Positions 1 through 22,250 of a stretch of DNA of 64,000 bases are shown here, piece by piece. Both the position numbers and the translations under genes were made by a program. Position 1 is the first letter of the stretch; the number at the start of each line of letters is the position of its first letter. This stretch comes from an uncultured Candidatus Saccharibacteria bacterium. GTDB taxonomy: Bacteria; Patescibacteriota; Minisyncoccia; Phycocordibacterales; CSBR16-119. The notes under the pieces are model-generated. The model searched no databases and had not been told where the DNA came from. It worked only from the letters and a program-made list of their open reading frames with translations. The DNA lies in contig CAYRQF010000001.1 in assembly GCA_964426385.1 (NCBI GenBank), positions 102,190-166,189 on the forward strand, written 5' to 3'.

Positions 1-20
1 AAAATAGTAAAAATGAAAGT

Positions 21-656
21 TTGTCATGGGACGCACCGTATAGAAACGCCTGGTTAAAAATCAAAGATGATAAACAAATAATGTCTCAAGTTGCACAGAT
101 ACCACATCGTTCAAGAATTGCTCGAAAGACTAAAGGTGCTAGTGGTGTAGTCGCTTTTGCGAAAAAAAGCGGAAATTATGTATTTGCATTTGGAGCAACC
201 CCAGAAATGGTTGATATAGTTTCTCCTCAAGTTGCACTTCCTTTATTTAACGAGGTAGTTGATTCTGAGCAATCCCTTGAGACAAGTATGAATTTTGATC
301 CCATCTATAAAATGGCAAAGGAGCATATCTTCAAAGACAATACTAGGGTGACCGTAGACGGTGGAAGAAAGCAGGATGCACTTAATCGTATCAAACTACT
401 GAGCGAGATATATCCACAAGCCAAGGACCTTTGTATAGATGTTATACGTGCAATTAAAGATCTCGATGCATTACCAAACGGAGTTTTGAAAGAAATAGTA
501 AATTTAAGAATTGAGAAGACAAACCCTGATAGTGCATACCAGGAATTAAGAATCCTAATTCCAAATAAATATATCGAAAGTATCTTCAAGACAGCAGAAC
601 GGGCTAATGACGATGGGCAACTTATCGTGTTGTCTGAAGAGTTAATCCCATCATGA
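21..656 (+). CDS. Hypothetical protein, first gene of the methyltransferase operon. The frame is open to the window start, so the 5' end may lie upstream of position 1.
   Basis: 211-aa ORF annotated with a TTG start at 21. The frame stays open back to nt 3, so the gene may begin outside the window. Its stop overlaps the start of the downstream MTase gene (ATGA overlap at 653-656), indicating translational coupling. AT-rich composition. No motif recognised. Confidence 0.45.
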   Translation: MSWDAPYRNAWLKIKDDKQIMSQVAQIPHRSRIARKTKGASGVVAFAKKSGNYVFAFGATPEMVDIVSPQVALPLFNEVVDSEQSLETSMNFDPIYKMAKEHIFKDNTRVTVDGGRKQDALNRIKLLSEIYPQAKDLCIDVIRAIKDLDALPNGVLKEIVNLRIEKTNPDSAYQELRILIPNKYIESIFKTAERANDDGQLIVLSEELIPS

Positions 657-3600
657 AATTAAACGAGAAGTATAATCAGGGCCCTTTTATTGATTTTATT
701 GGTAATTTTTTACCTGATGATTTTCAATTAAAAGACGAAGATATTATTATTAAAAAAGATAGATATAAAGAAATCAGCAAAGCAAAAATTTTAGGCTTTT
801 GTGAATCGTTAGATTTGCATGTCTTAGAGATGGACCATACTCATGATAAGGATCCGAGAATAACCATAGCAACTGACGCGTTTAAAATCTTAGCAGACCA
901 TTGGATTCACCGAGCCCTAGTTATCTTCAAAAATAACGATTCTGAAAACTATCGCTTTTCGTATTTAACCATTACCTTAGATCTTAATGATAAAAATAAG
1001 GTCACGAAGAAATATTCTAATGCACGTCGATACTCTTTCTATTTGGGTGGTAATGCAAAAGTTAAAACACCAGAACAACAACTTATCAAAAAAGGCAGAA
1101 TTAAAGACGTAGAAGATTTGCTCAGTAGATTTTCTGTTGAGGTTGTTAATAAGCAATTTTATTTTGAGATTGCGAAATTCTTTGATGAACTTGTTTCAGG
1201 TGAAGATAAAAATCTAATACTTCCGGGCATATCTGAAGAAGATACAAATACGCGAAAGAGTTTCGCTGTTCGGCTCATTGGTCGTATTATGTTTTGTTGG
1301 TTTTTGAAACAGAAAAAATCAAATAATGGTCAGCTTATTCCTGATGAATTGCTTTCTTCAAAGATAGTTTCGGATAACTACTATCACAGTACGCTTGAGC
1401 CGTTATTTTTTGGCGTACTAAATACAAACATCGATTCTCGCGATATTCGTAGCGATTCCTTTGATAAAGTGCCGTATCTCAATGGAGGACTTTTTAACCC
1501 TCAATCAGACGATTATTATGAGCTCGATAGGGGAACTTTCGCCTCAAGGCACATAAACACTCTTAAAATCAATGATTCTTGGCTTAAGGACTTTTTTGAG
1601 CTTCTTGAAACTTATAACTTTACCATTGATGAAAATACAGTTTTTGATCAAGAACTTTCTGTTGATCCGGAAATGCTCGGTAGAATTTTTGAAAATCTAC
1701 TTGCAGAAATAAATCCCGAAACCGGAAGTAGTGATCGCAAGAGAACAGGGAGCTTTTATACTCCGCGTCAAATAGTTGAGTATATGGTTGATCAATCGTT
1801 GGTTGAATATCTAAAGACTAAGACAAAAATTAATGAAAAAAAGATATCAGCACTTGTTAGTTATGATTTAACAGATGATACAGAACATCCACTAAATAAT
1901 GACGAAAAACAAGAAATTATAAATGCGATAGAATCTCTTAAAATTCTTGACCCTGCTTGTGGTTCCGGTGCATACCCAATCGGCGCACTTCAGAAAATTG
2001 TTTACATTCTCCAGCAAATTGATCCGGATTGTAAAATGTGGCTTGAGCAGAAACTAAAAAATATTCCGGAGTTATATAAGAAAAAAATAATTGACGAAGT
2101 TAAATCTAACCCTTTTGACTACACACGAAAACTTGATGTTATTAAAAATTCAATCTTCGGTGTAGATATTCAACCAATTGCGGTGGATGTTTCCCGCTTG
2201 AGATGTTTTTTGACACTCGTCGTTGAGTCAGAAGTAAATGATACAAAACCAAACAGAGGAATAGAACCTTTACCGAACTTAGACTTTAAATTTGTATGTG
2301 CGAATACTTTGATTGGCTTGCCAAAATCTCAATCCAGCAATCTTTTCGAAGATCATTCCGGTATAATTGAGCTTTCAAAAATAATGTCGGAGTATTTTTC
2401 ATGTAATAGTCAAAGAAAAAATGAAATTAAACTTAAATTTACAAATTTACAAAAAGGAATATTAGAAAAGACGGTATCCGCCTTCGGTAAAAATACGGGA
2501 GAGCTAACTTTAAAACTTACAACTTGGAATCCGTTTAGTAATAATTCAAATTCTTGGTTTGACCCGGAATGGATGTTTGGATTGGGGGAAAAGTTTGATG
2601 TGGTTATCGGCAATCCGCCTTATGTTGATTCAGAGACAATGGTGAAAGATAACCCTGATTTGAGAAATTTATATACTTCGCTTTACAAAACAGCTAAAGG
2701 TAATTGGGATTTGTTTATCATTTTTATAGAGCAGGGCATTAATTTTCTAAGCCATTATGGAAATTTGTCATTCATCGTGCCTAACAAATTGATTGCCGCA
2801 AAATATTCTGAGTCAATTAGGCTCCACATGCAGACTAAAAATATAAAATACATAAGGGATTATTCTGATGTGAGGGTGTTTAAGGAGGCGAGTGTCTACC
2901 CGATTGTTTTTCAGATATCAAACTCATTAAATTCAGATTCAAGCATCATCTTAACAAAAATGAAAGATATTGAAGAATACGAATTAATTAACCAAATACC
3001 TCACGCGCTGTTTTATACGGACGTATTCTGGGATAGGTATTTTATAAAACCAGAAGCACTCAAAGTAATTATTAAAATCTCACAAAATCCTAAACTTGAA
3101 AAAATTAACGACTTAGTTTTGGGCGCAGCCACTGTTAATGAAGCATATCAGTTAAAAGAAATTATTACTGAGGCAGAAATTGAAAAACAAGAATATAAAA
3201 AACTAATTAATTCTGGAACAATTGATCCATATACTTCTTTATGGGGTGACAAAAAAACTCAATATATTAAATCGTCATATAAAGCACCCGTAGTCGAAAA
3301 TGACGAGCTAAACAAATTATTGCCGAGACGGTTTATTCAGGCGAATAGTGAAAAGCTTATTGTTGCCGGTATGTCAAAGAGATTAGAGGTTCTCTACGAT
3401 TCCGGTGAATACATTGCTGGTAAATCTACCACAATCATTTTAAATAATGAGAAAATTAACATGTTGTATTTACTTGCAGTTCTTAATTCAAAATTGATTT
3501 CTTATTGGTATAAGGTCTATTTTAGTTCTTTGTCACTTGCTGGAGGTTATCTAAGAATTAGTAATAACGAAATCAAAAAAATTCCAATCGTAGTGGCTGA

Positions 3601-3763
3601 TAAAAATACGCAAGAAGTTATGATTAAAATTGTTAACCAAATTCACGATTATAAAAAGGGAAGTAATAAAAATACAGACGACCTTGAGTCAAAAATTGAT
3701 GAATTAGTTATGGATTTATATGGACTAAGTGAGGAGGAAAAAGAAATAATTAGAAATTCATAA
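653..3763 (+). CDS. Gamma-class N6-adenine DNA methyltransferase, Type IIG/IIL restriction-modification-like (MmeI / BREX PglX family architecture)
   Basis: 1036-aa ORF. Motif X GSFYTPRQIVEYMV, motif I ILDPACGSGAYPIG and motif IV VIGNPPY occur in the gamma-class order. The N-terminus GPFIDFIGNF...SLDLHVLEMD resembles the MmeI-family N-terminal nuclease region, but the ExK lysine is replaced (D54, E59, D61). The LNGGLF helical-linker motif is present. The roughly 380-aa C-terminus is consistent with a target-recognition domain. Confidence 0.8.
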   Translation: MKLNEKYNQGPFIDFIGNFLPDDFQLKDEDIIIKKDRYKEISKAKILGFCESLDLHVLEMDHTHDKDPRITIATDAFKILADHWIHRALVIFKNNDSENYRFSYLTITLDLNDKNKVTKKYSNARRYSFYLGGNAKVKTPEQQLIKKGRIKDVEDLLSRFSVEVVNKQFYFEIAKFFDELVSGEDKNLILPGISEEDTNTRKSFAVRLIGRIMFCWFLKQKKSNNGQLIPDELLSSKIVSDNYYHSTLEPLFFGVLNTNIDSRDIRSDSFDKVPYLNGGLFNPQSDDYYELDRGTFASRHINTLKINDSWLKDFFELLETYNFTIDENTVFDQELSVDPEMLGRIFENLLAEINPETGSSDRKRTGSFYTPRQIVEYMVDQSLVEYLKTKTKINEKKISALVSYDLTDDTEHPLNNDEKQEIINAIESLKILDPACGSGAYPIGALQKIVYILQQIDPDCKMWLEQKLKNIPELYKKKIIDEVKSNPFDYTRKLDVIKNSIFGVDIQPIAVDVSRLRCFLTLVVESEVNDTKPNRGIEPLPNLDFKFVCANTLIGLPKSQSSNLFEDHSGIIELSKIMSEYFSCNSQRKNEIKLKFTNLQKGILEKTVSAFGKNTGELTLKLTTWNPFSNNSNSWFDPEWMFGLGEKFDVVIGNPPYVDSETMVKDNPDLRNLYTSLYKTAKGNWDLFIIFIEQGINFLSHYGNLSFIVPNKLIAAKYSESIRLHMQTKNIKYIRDYSDVRVFKEASVYPIVFQISNSLNSDSSIILTKMKDIEEYELINQIPHALFYTDVFWDRYFIKPEALKVIIKISQNPKLEKINDLVLGAATVNEAYQLKEIITEAEIEKQEYKKLINSGTIDPYTSLWGDKKTQYIKSSYKAPVVENDELNKLLPRRFIQANSEKLIVAGMSKRLEVLYDSGEYIAGKSTTIILNNEKINMLYLLAVLNSKLISYWYKVYFSSLSLAGGYLRISNNEIKKIPIVVADKNTQEVMIKIVNQIHDYKKGSNKNTDDLESKIDELVMDLYGLSEEEKEIIRNS

Positions 3764-3766
3764 AAT

Positions 3767-4672
3767 ATGATTGATGGAGATAAAAAGGAAATAAAGGAAA
3801 TCGTTATTACTCTTCACGGAGACTTAATGAGTGACAACAGTGTTGACTATAGGACAGTATTTGATGTTGTCGATGGGTCAATTGGTGCTATAGAAGGGTT
3901 CTCTCGTATTGCTAATTTTAACCAAGTTGTGAGTTATCGAGTGAAGCCGCCACGAAAGGGAAGTTTTGAAATATCGATTCAGGCAGTTCAGTTACTAGGA
4001 GTAGCCACGTTACCTATTATACAGAATGCTGGGACTATTAAAGATGTTATTAATCTTTTTACCGAGTATGTAAAAATTAAAAAAGCCCTAAGGGGTGAAG
4101 AGTTAAATAAAGAAAATATTCAAACTAATGAAAATGGAGATATTATTATAAAAAATAAAAGTGGATCCGTAGTTTATAATGATAATAGGAGGATAATCAG
4201 TGTTAATGTTATTAATAATGCGATAGCAGATCCACAAATAAATAAAAAAATAGATAAAATTGTAACCGCATTAGAGAAGAATGAGCAAGTTGATACTATA
4301 TTATTTAAGGATCCAGAATTAAAAGAAAATAACACTTTAACTATAAATAAAACAGATGTAGATGCATTAAAGTATAAAGAAAAATTTGAAGAAAAAGCAG
4401 ACCAACTTGTCGGCTATATAAGAATGATAAACAATAAAACCAATAAGGGAATAATTACAGCTTCAAATGATGAGAAGGGTCGAGGAATTAATTTTGAAAT
4501 TGACATAAAAGACATAGACCTTCTTGATAAGGTCGTCAGAAATCTTGCCCTGGCTGAAGCAGATAGATCAAGAGTGGTGTTCTCCGGTGAAAAGACTCTT
4601 GATTCTGTAGGGAATATAAAAAAGATTATTGTAAATGATGTTGATATTGTAGACAAATCATTTGATTTTTAA
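3767..4672 (+). CDS. Hypothetical protein, third gene of the methyltransferase operon
   Basis: 301-aa ORF starting 4 nt after the MTase stop. Low-complexity, K/N/D/I-rich and AT-rich. No recognisable motif. Confidence 0.45.
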   Translation: MIDGDKKEIKEIVITLHGDLMSDNSVDYRTVFDVVDGSIGAIEGFSRIANFNQVVSYRVKPPRKGSFEISIQAVQLLGVATLPIIQNAGTIKDVINLFTEYVKIKKALRGEELNKENIQTNENGDIIIKNKSGSVVYNDNRRIISVNVINNAIADPQINKKIDKIVTALEKNEQVDTILFKDPELKENNTLTINKTDVDALKYKEKFEEKADQLVGYIRMINNKTNKGIITASNDEKGRGINFEIDIKDIDLLDKVVRNLALAEADRSRVVFSGEKTLDSVGNIKKIIVNDVDIVDKSFDF

Positions 4673-4680
4673 TTGATTTC

Positions 4681-4731
4681 ATGGACATACTTGCGCACAC
4701 ATTATGGGCGAATGCCGGGGCAAGGGGGTAG
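4681..4731 (+). pseudogene. Duplicated 5' fragment (16 codons plus stop) of the ydjM-like membrane protein gene found at 6688
   Basis: ATGGACATACTTGCGCACACATTATGGGCGAATGCCGGGGCAAGGGGGTAG encodes MDILAHTLWANAGARG*. It is near-identical to the first 16 codons of ORF 6688..7242 (MDILAHTLWTNAGARG...). Confidence 0.55.
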
Positions 4732-4869
4732 GGTAGTACAATTCCTTTCATTCATATTTCCCGTCCATCTCACTCCTTCCACCCCATCATTTAACCCCCG
4801 ATCTCACTATTTCATCACCCCTCCAGACCACTAGTCCATACTAGCATTTTGCAAAACACTGCAATAAGG
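4715..4869 (+). repeat. Direct repeat copy A (about 155 bp): G-rich core CCGGGGCAAGGGGGTAGGGTAGTA followed by a C/T-rich block and a conserved ACTAGCATTTTGCAAAACACTG box
   Basis: About 90% identical to copy B at 5835..6032. Contains repeated GATCTCACT submotifs. Ends in a palindromic TTTTGCAAAA box followed by an AATAAG -10-like element upstream of ORF 4900. Confidence 0.7.
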
Positions 4870-4899
4870 AAATTTAGAGAAGAATGGTAAAATAGATTT

Positions 4900-5493
4900 A
4901 TGAAAAAATATCATACTGTATTAATTCTTGTAGCGCTGGTAATTGCGTCTATATTTCTTGCTTCACTGCTGGAGGAGGTTACTTGGCGACGGTCTGCTAA
5001 TAAAAAGGCAGTTCTCCAAGAGCAGGCCATAGAGCAAGTTCCTGCTGTTGCTGATACACAAAATATAGAGCCCGAAGAATCTATAAAATCTCCCGTTAAC
5101 TACGAAGCCGCAAATGATTACATTCTTGATAGTGGATGTAGTTATGACATGTCTAATAATGCATACACGAACTGTGCAGAGGATGCGTTAAATAAAATAA
5201 AGGAGGTAAAAAAGAATGATTTTAAAAAATTAAAGGAACTAATGAATAGCAGGGAAGACAATGTCCTAACCTCCAATCAAGAAGAAAACCAAAAGCTGTA
5301 TAGCTGGTATGAATCTTCTGAAAAGGCCAACAGTCTAAGATGCCTAGTCGCTATGTATTGGACAAGGGCTGGTTCTGCTTACAATCAGAACATATATATG
5401 TGTGAAATACAGGAAACACTTACAGATATTGAAATAATCAATGAAAACTACAAAGAAATAAAAGAATGGATTGATACCATGGATATTTATTAA
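4900..5493 (+). CDS. Hypothetical signal-anchored/secreted protein
   Basis: 197 aa with an N-terminal hydrophobic segment (LILVALVIASIFLASLL). AT-rich. Preceded by repeat copy A. Confidence 0.45.
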   Translation: MKKYHTVLILVALVIASIFLASLLEEVTWRRSANKKAVLQEQAIEQVPAVADTQNIEPEESIKSPVNYEAANDYILDSGCSYDMSNNAYTNCAEDALNKIKEVKKNDFKKLKELMNSREDNVLTSNQEENQKLYSWYESSEKANSLRCLVAMYWTRAGSAYNQNIYMCEIQETLTDIEIINENYKEIKEWIDTMDIY

Positions 5494-5516
5494 TTTATGA
5501 AATATACTATAAAATT

Positions 5517-5777
5517 ATGAAATACTTAATATTAATATTTATACTAATAATATTTTTCTGGTATGTAATACGACCCCAAGTCCTATCAAAAAATATTTGC
5601 GAGTCAACATACGTATACCATAGTTTAATTGAAAACGGTGTCTTGGTAAATTACCATACGGCATCTGGTGTAACAGGACCGACAATAGAATTTTCTAGTA
5701 AAAAATCGGCTATAAAATCCTGTACGTATTTTCACAAAAAAATGTATAGGTCTTCTTTTCCTTTCTATTTATTTTAA
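5517..5777 (+). CDS. Hypothetical small membrane protein
   Basis: 86 aa with an N-terminal TM segment (YLILIFILIIFFWYVI). The ORF ends in an A/T-rich tail. Confidence 0.3.
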   Translation: MKYLILIFILIIFFWYVIRPQVLSKNICESTYVYHSLIENGVLVNYHTASGVTGPTIEFSSKKSAIKSCTYFHKKMYRSSFPFYLF

Positions 5778-5834: not shown

Positions 5835-6032
5835 CGCGGGGGCGAGGGGGTAGGGTAGTATTGTTTTACAATTCCTTTTTTTAATTTCTTTCATTCATGT
5901 TTCCCGTCCCATCTCACTCCTCCCACCCCATCATTTAACCCCCGATCTCACTCCTTCCACCACGATCTCACTATTTCATCACCCCTCCAGACCATTAGTC
6001 TATACTAGTATTTTGCAAAACACTGGTATGAG
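5835..6032 (+). repeat. Direct repeat copy B (about 200 bp) with core CGCGGGGGCGAGGGGGTAGGGTAGTA and box ACTAGTATTTTGCAAAACACTGGTATGAG
   Basis: Aligns with copy A over its whole length, and with the 5' end of gene 6688 over the G-rich core. Ends immediately upstream of the arsR-like gene. A TGGTATGAG extended -10-like element follows the box. Confidence 0.7.
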
Positions 6033-6061
6033 AAAAAAGGCGGTGATATAATTAAAAAACT

Positions 6062-6334
6062 ATGGCATTGGACTATCGAAAAGTTGAAAGGTTGTTAAAA
6101 GGTTTTGCCAATCATAATCGGCTCAAGATTTTGGAATTGCTAGAAAAACAGCCAGAACTGTCTGTGGCTGGCATATCAGAGAAACTTAAAATAGGGTATG
6201 AGAACGCGTCAGATCATATTCGTAAAATGGCTATTGCCGGACTTCTCTTGAAACGTAACGACGGCCCCAACGTCCGCCACCGCCTCACCCCAAAGGCAAT
6301 CTCAATACTAGCATTTTGCAAAACACTAGTATAA
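6062..6334 (+). CDS. ArsR/SmtB-family winged-helix transcriptional regulator
   Basis: 90 aa. NHNRLKILELLEKQPELSVAGISEKLKIGYENASDHIRKMAIAGLL matches the ArsR HTH signature. The 3' end of the gene itself contains the third copy of the TTTTGCAAAA box. Confidence 0.8.
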   Translation: MALDYRKVERLLKGFANHNRLKILELLEKQPELSVAGISEKLKIGYENASDHIRKMAIAGLLLKRNDGPNVRHRLTPKAISILAFCKTLV

Positions 6335-6336
6335 GA
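6296..6336 (+). promoter_or_regulatory. Third copy (C) of the conserved box ATACTAGCATTTTGCAAAACACTAGTATAAG: imperfect palindrome ACTAG-N-TTTTGCAAAA-N-CTAGT plus a TATAAG -10-like element
   Basis: The same box ends repeat A (4846..4869) and repeat B (6004..6032). Here it overlaps the arsR stop and lies upstream of the phnA-like ORF. Candidate operator or promoter. Confidence 0.45.
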
Positions 6337-6390
6337 AAATAGGCGGATATTGAGTGCTGAATTGATATAAAAATACTATAATCGAATCAT

Positions 6391-6654
6391 ATGTCACATG
6401 AAAACCAAGATTTAGAATCAGAAGACGTAGAAGAAACCGAAGCCTGCGTTGATAGCGACGGGAAACCCCTGCTGTCTGGAGATGAGGTATCGGTGATCAA
6501 GGACCTGAAAGTCGGCGGGACGAAACTAACGATTAGAAAGGGGACAGTAATCAAAAATATTAGATTAACCGACGACGTCGAGGAGATCGAATGCCGTTAT
6601 GATGATATGAAAGGCATTATTCTTCGTACTGAATTTTTACGCAAACGTTCGTAG
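6391..6654 (+). CDS. PhnA-domain (YjdC-like) small protein
   Basis: 87 aa. DGKPLLSGDEVSVIKDLKVGGTKLTIRKGTVIKNIRLTDDVEEIECRYDDMKGIILRTEFLRK matches the PhnA C-terminal domain pattern (KDLKVKG...KNIRLV...C...). Confidence 0.6.
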   Translation: MSHENQDLESEDVEETEACVDSDGKPLLSGDEVSVIKDLKVGGTKLTIRKGTVIKNIRLTDDVEEIECRYDDMKGIILRTEFLRKRS

Positions 6655-6687: not shown

Positions 6688-7242
6688 ATGGATATATTGG
6701 CACACACATTATGGACGAACGCGGGGGCGAGGGGGGTGAATAAGCTTCGCGAGAAGAAGGGTAAACCTCGAATATTTCACGTCGGCTGGACAGCCTTCTG
6801 GGGCGTAGCGCCGGACTTCTTCGCCTTTACGGCGCCGTTCGTCATAGCTCTCTGGAACATCGTCTTTGGCGATGCCACATTTGGAAATATTCGCAGCAAT
6901 ATGGACGTGGGAGGGTTCGATCTCGCGGCGTACCTGTATCAGTACAGTCACTCCCTCGTTGTCTTCGCCGTAGTGTTCCTACTAGTCTGGCTCATCTCGC
7001 GCCGTCCACGCTGGGAGATGCTCGGCTGGGCACTCCATATACTCATCGATATCCCGTCTCACGACATCGGTTTCTACGCCACGCCGTTCCTATTCCCGAT
7101 ATCTGACTATCGTTTCCCATACGGCGTGTCCTGGGGTAACACTTACTACATGATCATCAACTACTCCGCACTAGTCCTAGTCTGGAGCGGTATCGCCATC
7201 GCGAAAATCCGCAAGACTATAAATGCCCGAAAGACCCTATAA
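6688..7242 (+). CDS. Membrane-bound metal-dependent hydrolase-like protein (YdjM/DUF457-like), GC-rich
   Basis: 184 aa with multiple TM segments and HTLW/HD motifs. Notably higher GC than its left neighbours. Its first 50 bp are duplicated at 4681 and partly at 5835. Confidence 0.45.
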   Translation: MDILAHTLWTNAGARGVNKLREKKGKPRIFHVGWTAFWGVAPDFFAFTAPFVIALWNIVFGDATFGNIRSNMDVGGFDLAAYLYQYSHSLVVFAVVFLLVWLISRRPRWEMLGWALHILIDIPSHDIGFYATPFLFPISDYRFPYGVSWGNTYYMIINYSALVLVWSGIAIAKIRKTINARKTL

Positions 7243-7286
7243 AATGGTTGTATTGACAACGTATATACAATGTATATACTAATGAT

Positions 7287-7547
7287 ATGACTACAATAAA
7301 CATTCGAATCGACGAAAAACTAAAGAAAGCGGCAGGGAAAACCCTGGCGTCTCTTGGCCTCGACACTTCTTCTGCTGTGAAGATGTTTCTTTCGCAGGTA
7401 GTAACCGAAAATGGTTTGCCATTTACTCCAAGTAAAGATCCGGCGAAGATTCGCGCTCGTTGGGATAAGGAAGTCGCAGAAGCTCTGAAGAATGGCAAGA
7501 GGTATTCTACGGCGGAAGAAATGCACAAAGATATCTTCAAGGTATAA
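7287..7547 (+). CDS. dinJ: DinJ/RelB-family antitoxin (ribbon-helix-helix)
   Basis: 86 aa. NIRIDEKLKKAAGKTLASLGLDTSSAVKMFLSQVVTENGLPF is a classic DinJ N-terminus. Immediately followed by a YafQ-like toxin gene. Confidence 0.8.
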   Translation: MTTINIRIDEKLKKAAGKTLASLGLDTSSAVKMFLSQVVTENGLPFTPSKDPAKIRARWDKEVAEALKNGKRYSTAEEMHKDIFKV

Positions 7548-7555
7548 TAATAAGC

Positions 7556-7831
7556 ATGTACGAAATCCAATTTTCGTCAACTTACAAAAAGTCTATTAAA
7601 AGAGTAAGGAAAGGTGGGAAGATCTCTATGTCAGAGGTCTACCTTGTCATCAACACTCTTGCCTCTGGTAAACCTCTTTCTGTAAAACACAGGGACCATA
7701 AGCTAAGTGGCGAATTTTCAATGTATCGAGAGTGTCACATCAAGCCAGACTTGTTACTTATATATCAAATCAAAAATGATATTCTAGTTTTGGTTTTAAT
7801 AAACATAGGTTCACACTCAGAGCTTTTCTAG
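7556..7831 (+). CDS. yafQ: YafQ/RelE-family type II toxin (mRNA interferase)
   Basis: 91 aa. KHRDHKLSGEFSMYRECHIKPDLLLIYQI...INIGSHSELF matches the YafQ signature (KDH.L.G...YR..H..PD.LLIY...GSHS.LF). 8 nt downstream of dinJ. Confidence 0.8.
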   Translation: MYEIQFSSTYKKSIKRVRKGGKISMSEVYLVINTLASGKPLSVKHRDHKLSGEFSMYRECHIKPDLLLIYQIKNDILVLVLINIGSHSELF

Positions 7832-7834
7832 GAA

Positions 7835-8086
7835 ATGTACACTTTATATATTCTCAAATGCTCTGACGGGAGTCTCTATACCGGCATCACCACAGACCTA
7901 GCGAGGAGAGTGGCTGAACATAACGCCGGCAAAACAGGCGCGAAGTATACCCGAGCGAGGCGACCGGTAGCAGTCGTATACTCTCGAAAGTTTCGCACAC
8001 GCTCTACTGCGTCTCGTGAAGAAGCGAGGATCAAGACTCTGACTCGCGTTGATAAACTCGAGTTGTTAAGCGCTAAATCTAAATAA
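7835..8086 (+). CDS. GIY-YIG nuclease family protein (UPF0213-like)
   Basis: 83 aa. YTLYILKCSDGSLYTGITTDLARRVAEHN carries the GIY-YIG core motifs. Confidence 0.75.
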   Translation: MYTLYILKCSDGSLYTGITTDLARRVAEHNAGKTGAKYTRARRPVAVVYSRKFRTRSTASREEARIKTLTRVDKLELLSAKSK

Positions 8087-8115
8087 GCGTATAATAGAAA
8101 TAGGCCGAAACGTTT

Positions 8116-8187
8116 ACCCCCACACCTACTTTTTCATAGTTCTTTGAACACGCGCCTTTAGCGCAATGAAAAAGTAGGTGTAGGGGT
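8116..8187. repeat. Long-stem hairpin H1: arms ACCCCCACACCTACTTTTTCAT / ATGAAAAAGTAGGTGTAGGGGT (21 of 22 bp) around a 28-nt loop containing GCGC
   Basis: Stem read directly from the sequence. Intergenic between the GIY-YIG and lapA-like genes. Shares the CCCCCACACCTA arm with H2 at 55687..55755. Confidence 0.6.
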
Positions 8188-8213
8188 TTATCAAAATTAA
8201 TTTAGAAAAATCT

Positions 8214-8546
8214 ATGACACTTATTTTAGGACTTATACTTGGAGCCGGTTTCGTCGTATTCGCACTCCAGAACACGCAGACCGTTATGGTCACATTTCTC
8301 GGATGGGGATTCGAGGGATCTGTTGCCGTCATCGTCATCGCAGCATTACTCGCAGGTATCGTCATCAGCCTACTCATGGCTATCCCGGGAGTTATCCGCA
8401 ACATGATATCCGAATCTAGCCTGCGTGGTCACAACGATGCACTTCGTCGAGAACTCGATGATCACAAAGAGAAGCTCGAGGACGCACATAGGACTATCGC
8501 CGAGATCAAGAAGACTCCTGATGAGATCGTCATCACCAAGCTGTAA
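8214..8546 (+). CDS. LapA/DUF1049-like small membrane protein
   Basis: 110 aa with two TM helices followed by a charged coiled tail (RRELDDHKEKLEDAHRTIAEIKK), typical of the lipopolysaccharide assembly protein A domain family. Confidence 0.5.
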   Translation: MTLILGLILGAGFVVFALQNTQTVMVTFLGWGFEGSVAVIVIAALLAGIVISLLMAIPGVIRNMISESSLRGHNDALRRELDDHKEKLEDAHRTIAEIKKTPDEIVITKL

Positions 8547-8548
8547 GA

Positions 8549-9091
8549 ATGGAGAGGAGTATCAACGGCATACCATATACACTGCGTAACACTGCGCGCA
8601 AGATGCGTGTCTCTATCCGCATAGATAGTGCTGGTACTCTCGTCGTTTCGAAGTCTCGGTGGATATCTGTCCGACAAGCTGAGCGGGTCGTAGAGCGGAA
8701 CCTCGTCTGGATAGAGACGAAGATGAAGGAGATGAATGCCAGGCCAAAGAAACTCCTCGAGCACTACTCACGCGCAGACTTCCTCGCTTATCGAGAAACC
8801 GCCAGAAAGCTCGTCAGCGAAAGGCTAAAATATTTCAACCAGACGTATAGATTCGACATCGGTCGCATCTCTATCCGGAATCAGAAGTCTCGGTGGGGTA
8901 GTTGCTCGATGCTCGGGAATGTGAATTTTAATTACAAGCTCGCACTACTGCCACCAGCACTCTCTGACTACGTCATCGTGCATGAACTATGTCATATAGG
9001 TGAAATGAATCATGGGCCGAAGTTCTGGGCACTCGTCGCTAGGGCGATCCCAGACTGGGTAGATAGGAGACGAGCACTGAAAGCTTACTAG
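8549..9091 (+). CDS. YgjP-like metal-dependent hydrolase (DUF45, M48/SprT-like HExxH)
   Basis: 180 aa. RWGSCS...DYVIVHELCHIGEMNHGPKFWALV matches the conserved DUF45 core with an HELCH zinc motif. Confidence 0.75.
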   Translation: MERSINGIPYTLRNTARKMRVSIRIDSAGTLVVSKSRWISVRQAERVVERNLVWIETKMKEMNARPKKLLEHYSRADFLAYRETARKLVSERLKYFNQTYRFDIGRISIRNQKSRWGSCSMLGNVNFNYKLALLPPALSDYVIVHELCHIGEMNHGPKFWALVARAIPDWVDRRRALKAY

Positions 9092-9139
9092 TATCCGAGA
9101 AATAGCCTTTTTGGAAATTATAGTTTAGAATATTTACAT

Positions 9140-9292
9140 ATGACAAAAAGATCAAGTGTAGACATCCGTCCGCAAAATGCGAACCCACGGAAGTCCAAGA
9201 ATAGAGTAGCGGCCAAGAAGGCCATGCTCGCGGCCAAGGCCAAAAAGGTAGTTGATAACAAGAACGCCTGGCGCAAAACCAAGGCCAAGTAG
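9140..9292 (+). CDS. Unannotated 50-aa lysine-rich basic small protein (not in the ORF track because it is under 60 aa)
   Basis: ATG at 9140 gives MTKRSSVDIRPQNANPRKSKNRVAAKKAMLAAKAKKVVDNKNAWRKTKAK*. Followed by a stem-loop plus T-tract at 9308..9340. The antisense track ORF 9118..9306 looks spurious. Confidence 0.3.
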   Translation: MTKRSSVDIRPQNANPRKSKNRVAAKKAMLAAKAKKVVDNKNAWRKTKAK

Positions 9293-9307
9293 AGGGAGGG
9301 AGACATG

Positions 9308-9340
9308 ACCCGTATCAGAGATGATGCGGGTTTTGTTCTG
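9308..9340 (+). terminator. Rho-independent terminator-like hairpin (ACCCGTATC-AGA-GATGCGGGT followed by TTTTGTTCTG)
   Basis: 9-bp stem with one G-U pair plus a T-rich tail, directly after the small basic ORF. Confidence 0.4.
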
Positions 9341-9447
9341 CCAAAAAACCATGCATTAGAGAATATATTTGCTATTTTGGCAAGAATACGTAGACTATGG
9401 GTATATCAGTTAAATACCGGCCGCAAGGCTGGCAACTAAAGTAATAT

Positions 9448-10002
9448 ATGGGTAATTTTCAAGGAGGAGGGGCTAGAGGAGGATTTCGGGGTGGGGACCG
9501 CGGCGGCAAGCCATCGTTTGGAGGTAAGCCACGTTTTGGCGGAGCTAGAGGCTCTGATCGTGGTGACCGAGGTGATGTCGTGATGCACAAGGCTGTTTGT
9601 AGTGAATGTGGCAAAAGCACTGAAGTGCCTTTCAAGCCGACAGGTGACAAGCCTGTTTACTGCAAGGATTGCTTCAATGCCAAGCGTGATGAATCTGACA
9701 CGCGTGGTGGGGCACGTCCTAGCTACGACCGTGCGCCAAGGCGAGACTATGGTGACAAGCCAAGTTTCCGTCCTGACTCACGAAGTGAGCGCCCAGCCTA
9801 CAAGCCAGCGCCTGCTAACGACGAGACGAAGAAGGTAATGCAGGAGATCAGCACGAAACTCGATAAACTAATCAACGCCGTCGAGAGGCTCGCAGACTCG
9901 AGCAAAGCCGCTAGCCACAAAGAAGATGTGAAGAATGTGGTAGCCAAAGCGATGAAAGAAGACAAACCAAAAGCCAAGGCCGTTAAGAAGAAGAAAGCGT
10001 AA
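9448..10002 (+). CDS. RGG/GG-repeat protein with a central C4 zinc ribbon (CSECGK...YCKDC) and a K-rich C-terminus
   Basis: 184 aa. N-terminal GGGARGGFRGGDRGG repeats, CxxC-x17-CxxC, C-terminal KAKAVKKKKA. Possible nucleic-acid-binding protein; the family is not assigned. Confidence 0.5.
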   Translation: MGNFQGGGARGGFRGGDRGGKPSFGGKPRFGGARGSDRGDRGDVVMHKAVCSECGKSTEVPFKPTGDKPVYCKDCFNAKRDESDTRGGARPSYDRAPRRDYGDKPSFRPDSRSERPAYKPAPANDETKKVMQEISTKLDKLINAVERLADSSKAASHKEDVKNVVAKAMKEDKPKAKAVKKKKA

Positions 10003-10014
10003 TAATCATAAGTG

Positions 10015-16022: not shown

Positions 16023-19000
16023 TTGTTAATGCCACCACAAAGTAAAAATATCAGAAGATACTCAGTCAGGACTGTTGTCGGCATTTTGATTGCTGTGGTT
16101 TTTCTAACGTCCACACAAATCATCGAAGCCGCCGCTCCGACGGTGGTAACTGGGGCAGCAACTAGTATCACAAAAACTAGTGCTATTTTGGCTGGATCTA
16201 TCACTAGTAACGGAGGTGAGCTTATAACCGACACTGGTTTCGAGTTTGGACTTACCGATAGTTATGGACAAATTATACCTTCAACTGATAACACTACTGA
16301 GTATGTGTCTGAATTTGGCACAAGTGGGTCCGGAAATGGGCAGTTCGCCAATCCATTTGACATAGATATTGATTCCGCGGGCAATATATATGTTGTTGAG
16401 CAAGATGGTTCCCGAGTTCAAAAATTTAACCCTGCGGGGGTTTACCAGATGAAATTTGGTTCCTTTGGTGTAGGTGATGGACAATTTCAACAATCAAGAG
16501 GTATCGGTGTTGATTCCGCGGGTAATATATATGTAGCCGATACGTCCCGAGTTCAAAAATTCAACTCCGCGGGAGTCTACCAGTCGCAGCTTGTGGGAAG
16601 CTTTTCTGACCCAACCGATATTGGAATTGATTCTTCCGATAATGTTTATGTGGTAAATTTCGGAGGGCACGAGATAGATATATATAATTCTGCAGGCGTT
16701 TTTCAGAATACTGTAGGGTCTTTGGGTACTGGCGATGGTCAGTTTTCAAACCCTATGTACATAGCTTTCGATTCAATTGGTAACTTTTTTGTAACTGACT
16801 TTGGAAATCATCGTGTTCAAAAATTCAACTCTGCGGGTGTTTACCAGTCACAGTTCGGCTCGGATGGCGATGACAACAATGGCGACGGTGATGGCGAATT
16901 TTCATATATTAGGGGTATCGCTATCAACTCCAATGACGATATTTATGTGAGTGATATATCACAAAACAGAGTCCAAAAATTCAACTCCGCGGGGGTGTAT
17001 TTGTCACAGTTTGGTACGTCAGGTAACGACGATGGAGAGTTTTCTGGAGCGTACGATGTAGCTATAGATAGTCTCGACGCAATATACGTAACAGATTCGC
17101 AGAATAACCGTGTTCAAAAGTTTATAGAGCAGTTTTCTGCGGATCTAAATGCCGTACTTCCAACCCTGACATGTGGTACGACTTATCACTACAGAGCATA
17201 TGCAACAAATGCTACCGCAACTAGTTACGGAGATGACGAGACATTCACAACCTTAGCCTGTGAGGAGTACATAGTTAGAACTGGACTTGCCTCATCCGCA
17301 ACAACCACAACGGTGTCTCTAGCCGGCACTCATGAAGGTGAAGGTAGTCTCAACATTACAGGCCGAGGATTTAACTACGGCCTAACTGATTCGTATGGCT
17401 CCAGCGTAAGCGAGACGGGGGATTTATTTATCGATAAATTTGGTAGTGCTGGTGGTGGGGGTGGAAATGGTACGTTTCAATTTCTCGCTTCAGTCGGAAC
17501 TGATGTAGACGGAAATATTTATACTACTGATCAGTTCGAGGATGTCATTCAGAAATTTGATGCAGATGGAAATTTCGTCTCACAGTATAATGTCAGCTTT
17601 CCAGCGCCAGGCGGATTATCACTGCCATTTTCCGTACGCGGTGCACCGGACGGTAAGCTGTACGCAATCGATGCCTACAATTCTCAGATTGTAAGATTTG
17701 ATAATAGCCTCTTTGCAAACCCGACGGTGTTTGCAGCGGGTGGCGGAGTATCATTCCCAACAGGTGTCGGATTCGACTCAGATAGCAATGTATATATAGC
17801 TGACTATGGAAATGATCGTATTGCCAAATTCAATCCAGCTGGGACTTTACTCAGCACAATCAGTGCAGGTTCGGGTGGCGGAAATGGGCAACTCTCGGGC
17901 CCCAGTGCTGTTGCTGTAGATACTGATGGCAATATCTATGTCTTGGATACCAATAACATGCGCGTTCAGAAATTCAGTAGTGCAGGAACGTATGTAGCTC
18001 AAGTCGGTAGTGCTGGAAGCGGGAATGGAGAATTCGGTATTTCGTACCAATCGTCGATTGCTGTCGACGCCGATAATTTCGTATATGTTGTCGACACATC
18101 GAACAACCGCGTTCAGAAGTTCAATTCGAATTTGGTTTATCAGTCTCAGTTCGGGGTCTCAGGGGCTGGCGATGGCGAGTTTAGTGGACCTACAGGCATC
18201 GCCATCGGAGCAAATGGAGATATTGTTATTGCAGACGTCGGAAATAGTCGCGTTCAGATATTTAACGAACATTTCGCACTCGGAGTTACTGGGCTTATAT
18301 GCGGTACAACCTATCATTACCAAGCAACTGCAACAGGCCCTGACGGCACAGAGACAGGAGACGATGCCACTCTTACGACATCCGTCTGTCCAGTCGCAGC
18401 GTCCAGTGGTGGGGGTGGATCGAGTGGAACACATTTTATCTGTACGGACTCGAGCGCTGTCAATTACACCAAGGACATTGGTGATGGACGAGTAAATAAT
18501 GATATATGTAAGTATAAACAGGTGAATGTTCCGACTACAGAGCTCGCTTGCGAGACGCCTTTGTACCTAACTCGTCCGGTGAAGTTTGGTGCATCAAATA
18601 ATCCTGACGACGTCAGACTTCTAGAGAAATACCTGAACACTTACGAAGACAGCAACTTAACAGTCGACGGCTTCTATTCTAAAGCAGATTTCGATACAGT
18701 TGTTAGGTGGCAAGAGAAGTACAGTTCTGAGATCCTGACACCGTGGGGTATTACCGAAGGTACCGGCTATGTCTTCATCACAAGTTTGCGGAAAATCAAA
18801 CATATTCACGAATCGAAATGTGCCGAGGGTGGATACGTCACCGCGAGTGAGGCTTGTTACTTATATGACCAGGTGCTTAAGCGTGGCATGAATAGCGGCT
18901 TCGTCAAGTTCGCACAGAAAGCCCTTCTCGCATCAGGAAACTTGGCGGGTACTGCAGACGGAGTCTTCGGTTCGGTGACTGAGCTAGCGGTCAAGAATTT

Positions 19001-19085
19001 TCAAGCTAAAAATGGGTTAGCGAGCGATGGTGTTATCGGCCCCACAACAGGTAACCTATTGTCTGGAGTAAAGTGTGACATATAG
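16023..19085 (+). CDS. Giant secreted NHL-repeat (beta-propeller) surface protein with a C-terminal peptidoglycan-binding (PG_binding_1-like) domain
   Basis: 1020 aa. N-terminal signal/TM segment. Many repeats of ...SRVQKFNSAGVYQSQFG... (NHL-like). LTCGTTYHYRAYATN and LICGTTYHYQATATG Fn3-like modules. C-terminus KNFQAKNGLASDGVIGPTTGNLL matches the PG-binding domain. The NHL repeats are visible at DNA level (cgagttcaaaaattcaactccgcggg recurs). Confidence 0.8.
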   Translation: MLMPPQSKNIRRYSVRTVVGILIAVVFLTSTQIIEAAAPTVVTGAATSITKTSAILAGSITSNGGELITDTGFEFGLTDSYGQIIPSTDNTTEYVSEFGTSGSGNGQFANPFDIDIDSAGNIYVVEQDGSRVQKFNPAGVYQMKFGSFGVGDGQFQQSRGIGVDSAGNIYVADTSRVQKFNSAGVYQSQLVGSFSDPTDIGIDSSDNVYVVNFGGHEIDIYNSAGVFQNTVGSLGTGDGQFSNPMYIAFDSIGNFFVTDFGNHRVQKFNSAGVYQSQFGSDGDDNNGDGDGEFSYIRGIAINSNDDIYVSDISQNRVQKFNSAGVYLSQFGTSGNDDGEFSGAYDVAIDSLDAIYVTDSQNNRVQKFIEQFSADLNAVLPTLTCGTTYHYRAYATNATATSYGDDETFTTLACEEYIVRTGLASSATTTTVSLAGTHEGEGSLNITGRGFNYGLTDSYGSSVSETGDLFIDKFGSAGGGGGNGTFQFLASVGTDVDGNIYTTDQFEDVIQKFDADGNFVSQYNVSFPAPGGLSLPFSVRGAPDGKLYAIDAYNSQIVRFDNSLFANPTVFAAGGGVSFPTGVGFDSDSNVYIADYGNDRIAKFNPAGTLLSTISAGSGGGNGQLSGPSAVAVDTDGNIYVLDTNNMRVQKFSSAGTYVAQVGSAGSGNGEFGISYQSSIAVDADNFVYVVDTSNNRVQKFNSNLVYQSQFGVSGAGDGEFSGPTGIAIGANGDIVIADVGNSRVQIFNEHFALGVTGLICGTTYHYQATATGPDGTETGDDATLTTSVCPVAASSGGGGSSGTHFICTDSSAVNYTKDIGDGRVNNDICKYKQVNVPTTELACETPLYLTRPVKFGASNNPDDVRLLEKYLNTYEDSNLTVDGFYSKADFDTVVRWQEKYSSEILTPWGITEGTGYVFITSLRKIKHIHESKCAEGGYVTASEACYLYDQVLKRGMNSGFVKFAQKALLASGNLAGTADGVFGSVTELAVKNFQAKNGLASDGVIGPTTGNLLSGVKCDI

Positions 19086-19169
19086 TTAGCATTCTCACCT
19101 CGATTAATCACCAGAATCTCTTTATCCACTACAAGATACTAACGAGGCGTAGTAAAATATAGGCTGTTA

Positions 19170-22100: not shown

Positions 22101-22250
22101 GGTACTTTTAGTGGCACTATCGACGGAGTCTATGGACCGGTAACAGAATCGTCCGTCAGAAGCTTCCAGACTCAGAATGGTCTCGCCGGGGATGGAGTCC
22201 TAGGGGCTACTACTGGTCTCAAACTTGAAGAAGTTACTTGCAACATCTAG
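19170..22250 (+). CDS. Giant secreted NHL-repeat surface protein, tandem paralog of 16023..19085, with a C-terminal PG-binding domain
   Basis: 1026 aa with the same architecture: signal/TM, NHL repeats (RIQKF..G.F), LTCGTTYHYRAYATNSDGTSYG, and C-terminus RSFQTQNGLAGDGVLGATTG. Both paralogs have a similar ribosome-site context (ggctgttaatgcc / ggattgttaatgcc). Confidence 0.8.
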   Translation: MPTKDKIQTKHILSILGALLICIVFLESTNILQAAAPTVRTMPAVNITKTSATLAGVVSDDGGQLITASGFEFGLTSSYGQSVGGDPTYRQTDEFGGTGSANGQLDEPMGIDLDSNGDIFVADRINNRIQKFNGTTHAWMQNIGTPGTDPEQLEDPLSIVLLSDDSMWVVDRANGSQNSGSLIKYDASGTFVECITLNQCATNFDFGNTLFASNFNGGIETDSSDNLYYTKGNEVYAIANGTNATIFVKGAAASSADGEFDSPAGLFVDSVGNILVADKNNGRIQKLESDGDYLSKFGTVGSGDGEFQTPAAITSDSTGDLFVVDAGNGRIQKFDSNGNFILDFGSVGQGDDQFAGPVEIVADAADDLYISDSQNDRIVKYEQGFTSDLSVVLPSLTCGTTYHYRAYATNSDGTSYGLDETFSTLDCDVPLVRTGVSSSITASSVTLAGTHEDVGSLSMTSRGFHYGTTASYGQSVSEDGDLYIDSFGSAGGGGGNGTFLSLYGVGSDAEGNIYTTDSFENIIQKFSATGTFISQYDVSFPDPGGVTTPYVLRGAPDGKLYAVDAFNSQIIKFDDNNFTNPTVFAAGAGLSFPTDIAFDASSNIYAVDSGNSRVVKLDQTGSIVLEIDNPNGGPDFAALQTIAVNSGGDIFVYDGSTLQIHKFDSTGAYVTSTSGVNGSADGQFAGSAYLASDGSYIYAADGASTRVQKFDSDLDFVSKFGSTGASIGQFASITGITLGNSGDIIVADSGNSRIQIFNERFSLPLVGLTCGTTYHYEAFATSPDGTGDGDDATFTTSACPPSTGGGGGTTGSRYYCNDPLATNYTENVPSNRVDNDLCKYPEPDDDELACTGTLFLSKPVRYGYANNPEDVKLLERFLNTYENTTLTVDGVYAHNDYVAVVTWQEKYASEILKPWGLTKGTGYVFITSLRKIQKVHDTGCAETERLKRDFCYIYDQKLKRGDNIPLVKFAQKALRAAGTFSGTIDGVYGPVTESSVRSFQTQNGLAGDGVLGATTGLKLEEVTCNI

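Follow-up and report, generated by a model that had tools for sequence, protein, structure and literature searches.

The 64,000-nucleotide stretch analysed here (the window) comes from an uncultured Candidatus Saccharibacteria bacterium (assembly GCA_964426385.1, contig CAYRQF010000001.1, positions 102,190 to 166,189) and opens within a 7.3 kb cassette of three genes, encoding a PLD-SNF2 helicase-nuclease, an adenine methyltransferase (MTase) and a 301-aa protein referred to here as X. Taken as a whole, this cassette probably represents a horizontally acquired two-subunit ATP-dependent restriction-modification (R-M) system accompanied by a promiscuous accessory, X. Its core, a PLD-SNF2 effector acting together with an MmeI/Eco57I-like MTase that carries its own target recognition domain (TRD), is very likely to be correctly identified from sequence, since the PLD and superfamily 2 (SF2) helicase motifs are intact, the MTase motifs and TRD are intact, the two genes are coupled, the pair recurs in other genomes, and there is a precedent in the MANTIS system.

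Three co-directional open reading frames (ORFs) on the + strand, at 21(open)..656, 653..3763 and 3767..4672, were found as described in an earlier sequence-only reading of this DNA. The part of the cassette that falls within the window is organized as follows:

1..656 (open at the left; ORF 21..656), + strand: 3' end (last ~218 codons) of the PLD-SNF2 gene, predicted R subunit

653..3763, + strand: MTase gene, 1036 aa, predicted M+S subunit (ORF call, Pfam, PADLOC, motifs)

653..1120, + strand: N-terminal domain of the MTase (aa 1-~155), candidate docking domain with the topology of a restriction endonuclease (REase)

3767..4672, + strand: X, 301-aa accessory protein, divergent LAPAL/DUF7946-DUF7947 relative with a C-terminal OB fold

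The PLD-SNF2 and MTase genes are joined by an ATGA overlap at 653-656, as had been claimed, while the gap between the MTase and the 301-aa gene, previously given as 4 nt, is a 3-nt spacer (taa-aat-atg) between the MTase stop and the start of X. Promoter and terminator scans of the locus gave hits at the chance level.

DNA upstream of the window was recovered through an exact-match look-up of the MTase, which led to a public 19.7-kb contig (SRR12762274_42486, locus L001) extending 9.3 kb beyond the left end of the window. The ORF that had been taken for a small upstream partner of 211 aa was found to be the C-terminus of a 1095-aa protein with PLD, SNF2 and Helicase_C domains; the full gene lies at positions 6717-10004 of this contig and starts approximately 2.6 kb left of window position 1. 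Neither neighbour of the MTase is a dedicated small partner, as had been supposed: the upstream one is an HKD-nuclease/SNF2 motor, and X shows no specificity for this MTase.

The domains identified in the 1095-aa protein by Pfam were PLDc_2 (aa 45-198), ResIII, SNF2-rel_dom and Helicase_C. The best PADLOC matches were to 'HKD+Snf2' (3.7e-33) and DrmD (4.7e-33), followed by BrxHI/II, HmaA, PbeA and DpdE, and a near end-to-end match to phrog_26785 was obtained (3e-102). The single HKD motif is intact (H137-x-K139…GSSN), as are SF2 motifs I, II, III and VI, represented by the Walker A sequence GLGKS (292), DEAH (360), SATP (389) and QRVGR (806). Neither a modified-base reader nor a TRD was detectable in this protein with Pfam or PADLOC. 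On the basis of these motifs the PLD-SNF2 protein is predicted to supply the nuclease that is missing from the MTase. The upstream sequence contained no BREX component; genes for DrmA, DrmB/DUF1998, PglZ, BrxC, DUF499 and DUF3780 were absent from the 6.7 kb upstream and from the 64-kb window.

The second gene encodes an MmeI/PglX-like gamma-class N6-adenine MTase, as the sequence-only reading had proposed. Its product matched the Pfam families Eco57I (5e-32), TaqI_C (1e-10, aa 869-979), N6_Mtase and MmeI_Mtase (28.2 bits, cutoff 27), with a weak match to MmeI_hel, and the PADLOC model REase_MTase_IIG (3.5e-84). The MTase motifs reported earlier were confirmed, GSFYTPRQIV at aa 366-375, DPACGSGAY at aa 433-441 and NPPY at aa 654-657, and the sequence LDLHVLEMDH (aa 53-62) bears out the earlier numbering of D54, E59 and D61. 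The order of a helical spacer, a gamma-MTase and a TaqI_C-type TRD is that of the MmeI/Eco57I type. The alignment to REase_MTase_IIG begins only at model position ~202, leaving the nuclease part unmatched, and no match to MmeI_N was obtained even at E ≤ 1.

Of the three residues D54, E59 and D61, only E59 proved invariant when the N-terminal domain of the MTase was aligned with 27-29 relatives; hypervariability was seen at position 61 (D/K/N/T/S/V/A/I/Y), and position 54 varies too. Bacteroidota relatives read E-V-K at the E59 site. Other conserved signatures of this domain are SNxRRYS(F/Y)xLG and SRFSVEVVNKQFY. A D…ExK triad is not conserved anywhere in this clade. The earlier suggestion that a catalytic Lys had been replaced by Asp (D61) was not sustained: since positions 54 and 61 both vary, the absence of the triad is clade-wide and does not reflect a point change in one enzyme. 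The broader expectation that the MTase is probably unable to cleave alone agrees with the lack of a conserved triad and with the Type IIG model being matched only past its nuclease region. In an AlphaFold2 (AF2) model of the domain (pLDDT 83) the elements follow the α-β-β-β-α-β order of the REase fold, with E59 on β3, though the fold match is weak. The domain is probably a decayed REase-like domain and not a nuclease; residual nuclease activity is possible.

These features bear on an alternative in which the MTase is a self-sufficient Type IIG/IIL enzyme with an unconventional E59 site, while the PLD-SNF2 protein acts on its own as a Type IV-like or SauUSI-like nuclease and has no more than the operon in common with it. 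The invariance of E59, its position on β3 of an REase-like fold and the E-V-K of the Bacteroidota relatives would suit such an enzyme, and SauUSI demonstrates that PLD-helicase proteins can act autonomously; however, E59 has no conserved Asp or Lys partners, MmeI_N is not matched, and an independent PLD-SNF2 nuclease sits poorly with the lack of a detected modified-base reader or TRD, the ATGA overlap and the co-occurrence of the two genes across phyla. This arrangement was considered most improbable.

The N-terminal domain of the MTase co-varies with the C-terminal ~225 aa of the helicase in 5/5 pairs, both regions being alignable in Parabacteroides and neither in the four others. A docking interface between the helicase C-terminus and the MTase N-terminus is put forward as a hypothesis only, as overall divergence confounds this comparison. 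Homologues of the N-terminal domain were often short proteins (124-350 aa; P0128, P0137, P0142, P0164) on contigs of 16-686 kb; because these contigs are long, the proteins are not simply cut at contig ends, and splits, frameshifts or phase variation may be common in MTase genes of this kind.

The helicase and MTase pair is widespread, still unnamed and uncharacterised. A tblastn search of plasmid records with the helicase-nuclease matched 277 records. In Parabacteroides distasonis the same gene order was observed, with an SNF2-related protein (44% identity, 99% coverage) followed by an N-6 methylase (35%, full length). The two-gene cassette was likewise found in Prevotella nigrescens and Pelobacter propionicus, where a helix-turn-helix (HTH) gene or a recombinase adjoins it, and the pair is also present in two loci of the candidate phyla radiation (CPR), L008 and L023. 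Found intact in five further genomes of three phyla, the compact pair can be regarded as a stable unit. Milman et al. (PMC9881135) mention in passing a Type IIG-like coding sequence adjoining a PLD plus SNF-helicase coding sequence; no paper naming or characterising the pair was found in the literature. The statement of the sequence-only reading that the layout is not a textbook Type IIG, Type I or BREX holds for the arrangement itself, but the pair is common and has a brief mention in the earlier literature.

The gene next to the pair differs among these genomes. In P. distasonis (NZ_OY725763; L014, 13633-15532) an unrelated 304-aa hypothetical protein is encoded 4 nt past the MTase stop, followed by a TIR-domain protein; as a candidate homologue of X the 304-aa protein was rejected (hhalign probability 0.2%). 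The third position of the cassette thus seems to be a variable accessory slot. PLD-SNF2 homologues with 31% identity were found on Allomeiothermus and Thermus plasmids (L015, L016) in the order DNA methyltransferase, hypothetical protein, helicase-related protein, which points to further variants of the module.

It could also be argued that the locus is a degenerate, non-autonomous remnant of class 1 DISARM, BREX or MANTIS/BR type 2. The PADLOC similarities to DrmD (4.7e-33), DrmMI (2e-18), BrxHI/II and PglX would be expected of such a remnant, a PLD-SNF2 homologue in Bacillus cereus is located within a DISARM-like locus, and the effector architecture is that of MANTIS. Against this stand the absence of all six marker genes listed above from the upstream DNA and the window, a PglX NCBIfam score of 68 vs 500 bits, and the integrity of the compact pair in five other genomes of three phyla. 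A remnant is therefore very unlikely.

The nearest characterised relative of this core is MtsD of MANTIS, a DUF499-centred, BREX-related system also known as Gao_RL or BR Type-2 (classification PMC12839542). As an effector MtsD forms a PLD-SF2 dimer that has a single composite PLD site; MANTIS restricts DNA lacking methylation, for which both the PLD His (H122) and the Walker A Lys of MtsD are required (preprint 10.64898/2026.09.23.753747). MANTIS also needs an extra DUF499 AAA+ ATPase and a small co-regulator to load its DPPY MTase (preprint 10.64898/2026.09.23.753747).

In the mechanism proposed for the two-subunit system, the MTase would recognise, through its own TRD, a probably asymmetric site, methylate adenine at N6 and so mark self DNA, its decayed N-terminal domain no longer cutting. 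The PLD-SNF2 protein would dimerise to form one composite PLD active site, and the dimer would hydrolyse ATP, move on or remodel DNA from unmethylated sites, and cleave it. Methylation would block restriction, following classical logic. We infer the interaction of the subunits, the dimerisation, the ATP-driven cleavage and the blocking of cleavage by methylation from the enzymology of MANTIS MtsD, SauUSI, BfiI and the Type ISP/III enzymes. The sequence-only reading had raised the possibility of a modification-dependent defence; the architecture predicts the opposite, with methylation preventing restriction.

X could not be assigned to any Pfam or PADLOC family. It matched NCBIfam NF053583 ('LAPAL motif-containing putative phage structural protein') with 42.2 bits, below the cutoff of 60 (E 6.5e-11, model positions 2-279 of 292), and also phrog_3243. 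An exhaustive profile search with X retrieved 91 cluster representatives, nearly all of them standalone proteins of 280-320 aa, and 37/40 of the wider relatives matched NF053583 (best 4.5e-62), a few matching DUF7946 plus DUF7947. Judged from these profiles, X is a divergent relative of LAPAL (NF053583, DUF7946/DUF7947) that lies below formal membership. Nothing relevant on LAPAL, and no paper on DUF7946 or DUF7947, was found in the literature.

An OB fold was identified at the C-terminus of X (aa ~207-294), preceded by two N-terminal domains. X is mildly acidic, with an isoelectric point (pI) of 5.4. Enzymatic, ABC-ATPase or anticodon-nuclease domains were not found in X with Pfam, NCBIfam or PADLOC, no invariant catalytic-type residue was observed across the wide family, and no solved structure related to X by sequence was found. 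Searches by tblastn with X and with a canonical LAPAL member (P0041) against INPHARED (50,697 phage records) and the PLSDB plasmids gave no matches. Full-length BFVD matches to X were uncharacterised proteins of temperate phages, and in IMG/VR prophages distant relatives were located beside an integrase and a repressor and, once, beside an Mrr nuclease. A phage structural role for the family found no support, the relatives not being located in virion modules.

Twelve genomic contexts of X were examined, of which 11 were informative, L013 being truncated at a contig end; from the X-family alignment (A1), one locus was retrieved from GTDB genomes and two from JGI metagenomes. The gene orders were:

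Window, L008 and L023: PLD-SNF2, Eco57I-MTase, X

L018: Eco57I-MTase (5'-truncated at the contig end), X

L030: ResIII–Eco57I single-polypeptide fusion (Type ISP-like), X

L005: HsdM, HsdS, X, HsdR

L010: X, Mod, Res

L004: SNF2, Mod, Res, X

L028: SNF2, Shedu-like protein, Mod, Res, X

L029: Mod, Fic, Res, X

L021: Res, 68-aa ORF, X

L013: T5orf172, X, Cas4-like nuclease (truncated at the contig end)

In 11/11 informative contexts X adjoins an SF2-ATPase restriction system, be it Type I, Type III, Type ISP-like or PLD-SNF2, with operon-like spacing to the R-M genes that is usually 2-4 nt. Between the window and L008/L023 the X proteins are 63-64% identical, the helicase-nucleases 25-28% and the MTases 30-33% with non-homologous N-termini; members of X that are 63-68% identical to that of the window accompany Type III and ISP-like enzymes. 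The closer Bacteroidota helicase/MTase pair is without X. Where a source is named, X comes from Patescibacteria, Parcubacteria or Saccharibacteria, and in L008 a serine recombinase adjoins the trio of PLD-SNF2, MTase and X. Because X is conserved (~64%) across divergent or non-homologous partners and missing from the closer Bacteroidota pair, there is strong reason to regard it as a shuffled accessory linked to R-M systems. That X is a passive hitch-hiker was also considered.

Other genes were noted in the vicinity of X. Two DUF2779 proteins with 41% mutual identity are encoded directly after Res in L010 (5999-7546) and directly after X in L028 (9937-11499), and a PDDEXK_1/Cas4-like nuclease follows X in L013 (1172-1924); a RecB/Cas4-like nuclease (DUF2779, PDDEXK_1) may be a recurrent partner of X. 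Beyond these DUF2779 genes in two loci, the DNA downstream of X revealed no conserved fourth gene. A Shedu-like SduA_C protein is encoded between SNF2 and Mod in L028 (3160-4383) and a Fic protein between Mod and Res in L029 (4318-5496). Such embedded or adjacent defence-type genes are frequent in the R-M operons of these CPR contigs, other examples being T5orf172/MUG113 and SIR2-STAND proteins (L005, 6163-6771; L030, 67-636 and 7581-10703).

As for what X does, it may, as a non-enzymatic OB-fold accessory, bind a nucleic-acid intermediate common to motor-driven restriction enzymes (single-stranded DNA (ssDNA), DNA ends or stalled complexes) and thereby boost or safeguard restriction. This specific nucleic-acid-binding role is proposed tentatively. 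Partner-specific contacts are disfavoured because X is conserved across unrelated partners, and a common DNA intermediate is suggested by the OB fold and by the RecB/Cas4-like nucleases nearby in three loci. A more elaborate version, in which X would be a lineage-specific OB-fold 'plug-in' cofactor for any SF2-ATPase R-M system, sensing displaced ssDNA, collided or stalled motors, or a shared phage inhibitor, is at present doubtful.

Some of the observations weigh against the overall proposal. The OB fold makes up only about one third of X, OB folds also bind proteins and sugars, and the two N-terminal domains carry no fold assignment. X appears to be dispensable for the core activity, because it is missing from the closest Bacteroidota relatives of the helicase and MTase. 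Nor is the PLD-SF2 and MTase pair necessarily self-sufficient, because MANTIS requires both an ATPase and a co-regulator.

The location of X between hsdS and hsdR in L005 is the slot of prrC in EcoprrI (PMC2610378, PMC3874168, which also describe the biology of PrrC), and X might by analogy be a guard or back-up effector of the PrrC/Rlo type, silent as long as the linked R-M enzyme works and causing abortive infection once a phage anti-restriction factor disables it. The same CPR R-M operons contain other accessory or back-up genes (Fic, SduA_C, T5orf172), and auxiliary or back-up effectors are widespread around BREX-like systems (Rakesh & Krishnan). X, however, has neither a recognisable toxic or enzymatic domain nor invariant catalytic-type residues, and a latent guard complex would oblige it to make particular contacts with enzymes as unlike as HsdR/M, Res/Mod and PLD-SNF2, yet the identity of X holds at ~64% where that of its partners is 25-33% or where they share no homology. 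A guard function is unlikely for these reasons.

A different possibility is that X counters the anti-restriction of phages or plasmids, as a decoy or sink for DNA mimics, or that it moderates the action of the motor-nuclease on the host's own DNA (restriction alleviation, establishment control), in either case serving any ATP-dependent R-M system that it accompanies. That X is independent of the type of R-M system and has so far been seen in a single host lineage would fit a partner determined by the host or by phages of that host; X moves together with R-M cassettes adjoining recombinases, and its DNA-binding type of fold could bind DNA mimics. This is purely inferential, though, in that no similarity of X to a known anti-anti-restriction or restriction-alleviation factor was found, and its pI of 5.4 disfavours the binding of acidic mimics. 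Such a function was thought improbable. The preferred proposal for X is still that of a non-enzymatic accessory acting on an intermediate shared by motor-driven enzymes.

The cassette is a horizontally acquired defence-type island, as the sequence-only reading had anticipated; its foreign composition supports this. The cassette has a GC content of 34.5%, the flanking DNA on its left 49.6% and the remainder of the window 46.3%, and a similar break was observed in the GC content of third codon positions (GC3), which is 23-32% in the three cassette genes vs 40-65% in host genes. Horizontal acquisition is indicated by this difference of 34.5% GC against 46-50% in the flanks, together with the serine recombinase adjoining the trio of L008. 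At its left edge the island begins with the start codon of the PLD-SNF2 gene, ~30 nt past a host S49-peptidase gene. The features immediately to the right of X are:

4679..4879, no strand assigned: first copy of a ~200-nt host-like repeat, 46% GC (repeat search, blastn)

4900..5777, + strand: further AT-rich DNA (33% GC) containing two orphan ORFs (197 aa and 86 aa)

5836..6043, no strand assigned: second copy of the ~200-nt repeat, 90-95% identical to the first (repeat search, blastn)

The cassette ends 6 nt before the first repeat, whose first 50 nt correspond to the duplicated 5' end of a YdjM-like gene starting at 6688 (84% identity over 4679-4728; repeat search, blastn). The duplicated fragment at which the AT-rich block had been said to end exactly is therefore real, but AT-rich DNA resumes at 4900-5777. 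This second insert of 0.9 kb is bracketed by the two ~200-nt repeats, the copy at 5836-6043 closing it, and because of this bracketing the region suggests a single hotspot for successive or nested insertions or for the exchange of cassettes. Contig SRR12762274_42486, assembled from public short reads, breaks within the first repeat, at window position 4721. A matching att-like repeat was looked for at the left island edge with blastn and none was found, and no integrase is present in the locus.

The orphan ORFs of 197 aa and 86 aa have hydrophobic N-termini and gave no significant family match in Pfam, PADLOC, NCBIfam or PHROG searches; weak PADLOC and NCBIfam matches of the 197-aa ORF to Cas8 (E 3.5e-4 and 0.017) were taken as chance. 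Counterparts were not found downstream of X in any other X locus, and membership of these ORFs in the R-M system is not supported. A 45-nt element that includes a near-perfect palindrome (ATACTAGnATTTTGCAAAAnnCTAGTAT) is present in three copies (4835-4879, 5999-6043 and 6302-6346), which lie upstream of the 197-aa ORF, of an ArsR-family HTH gene (6062-6334) and of a PhnA/YjdM-like gene (6391-6654); it is probably the operator of the ArsR-like repressor. Just right of the island a DinJ/RelB-like antitoxin ORF (7287-7547, read by eye) is followed at its 3' side by a YafQ-family toxin (7556-7831; PDB HP0892/YafQ, E 3e-20) and next by a small GIY-YIG-like ORF (7835-8086, by eye). Further along, at 16023-22250, two tandem paralogues of ~1020 aa combine NHL-repeat beta-propellers with a C-terminal peptidoglycan-binding domain.

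With the upstream gene completed, the MTase would represent the modification and specificity half of a common, unnamed motor-nuclease R-M system and not an orphan with two small helpers, and this unnamed pair can now be interpreted through the structure of MANTIS MtsD. The core adds a new member or variant to the ATP-dependent R-M designs already known, and the novelty lies in the accessory family X, which hops between R-M systems. Bacteria of the candidate phyla have tiny genomes and are thought to be heavily dependent on R-M for defence, and in them X behaves like a portable module that accompanies ATP-dependent restriction enzymes of four classes differing in mechanism. Should X modulate restriction, it would act as a general regulator or enhancer, open to testing in Type I or Type III systems that are tractable; the plug-in cofactor, if true, would add to classical R-M a new layer of control or back-up immunity. 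The database name 'phage structural protein' for NF053583 is probably misleading, and a role for X would correct it.

Compared with known systems, X resembles the PrrC/Rlo genes in that it is no R-M gene itself but sits within R-M operons, also in the slot between hsdS and hsdR, or at their ends, and is co-transcribed with them. It differs in lacking an ABC-ATPase or anticodon-nuclease domain and in its linkage to four ATP-dependent R-M classes, not to Type I alone. With NF053583, DUF7946 plus DUF7947 and phrog_3243 it shares an end-to-end alignment, a standalone character and a size of ~300 aa, while falling short of the NF053583 cutoff (42 vs 60 bits); the relatives occur beside integrases, repressors and R-M genes.

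Membership of the cassette in BREX, DISARM, MANTIS, Type III and Type ISP was rejected in each case on missing defining components. BREX would require PglZ and BrxC/PglY, which are absent from L001 and the window, and the PglX NCBIfam scores are 36-68 bits against cutoffs of 400-900. Class 1 DISARM shares an SNF2-type ATPase with a large Eco57I-like adenine MTase, as seen in the PADLOC cross-matches to DrmD and DrmMI, but the cassette has no DrmA or DrmB (DUF1998), and its PLD is fused to SNF2 instead of forming a separate DrmC. In comparison with Type III enzymes, the MTase is of the gamma-class Eco57I kind and not a beta-class Mod (N6_N4_Mtase), and the nuclease is an N-terminal PLD and not a C-terminal PD-(D/E)xK domain.

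The MmeI-family Type IIL/IIG enzymes (MmeI, DrdV, BpuSI, Cj0031-like) have in common with the cassette MTase the helical spacer, gamma-MTase and TRD, and an N-terminal domain in the nuclease position with the same general topology. The MTase differs in lacking a conserved D…ExK and a match to MmeI_N, and in being coupled to a separate motor-nuclease. Restriction and modification in a single polypeptide, as in Type IIG, is not what was found here, where a coupled PLD-SNF2 gene forms with the MTase a pair conserved across phyla.

MANTIS shares with the cassette an N-terminal HKD/PLD fused to an SF2 ATPase (here PLDc_2, SNF2 and Helicase_C, with HxK…GSSN) and an N6-adenine MTase that marks self DNA; as each chain has only one HKD motif, a composite active site formed by a dimer is implied, and unmethylated DNA is the predicted target. 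The cassette differs in having neither MtsA (DUF499 AAA+) nor MtsB (DUF3780/3870) within the 6.7 kb upstream or the 64-kb window, in its gamma-class NPPY MTase with its own TaqI_C-type TRD, as against an ATPase-loaded DPPY enzyme, and in having two core genes vs four. With the Type ISP enzymes LlaGI and LlaBIII it has in common the order of nuclease, SF2 motor, gamma-class MTase and TRD, and an ATP-dependent logic. In the cassette these functions are distributed over two overlapping genes, the nuclease is HKD/PLD and not Mrr/PD-(D/E)xK, and an extra decayed REase-like domain heads the MTase. In functional terms, the locus can be read as a Type ISP enzyme divided between two genes, in which a PLD domain takes the place of the Mrr nuclease.

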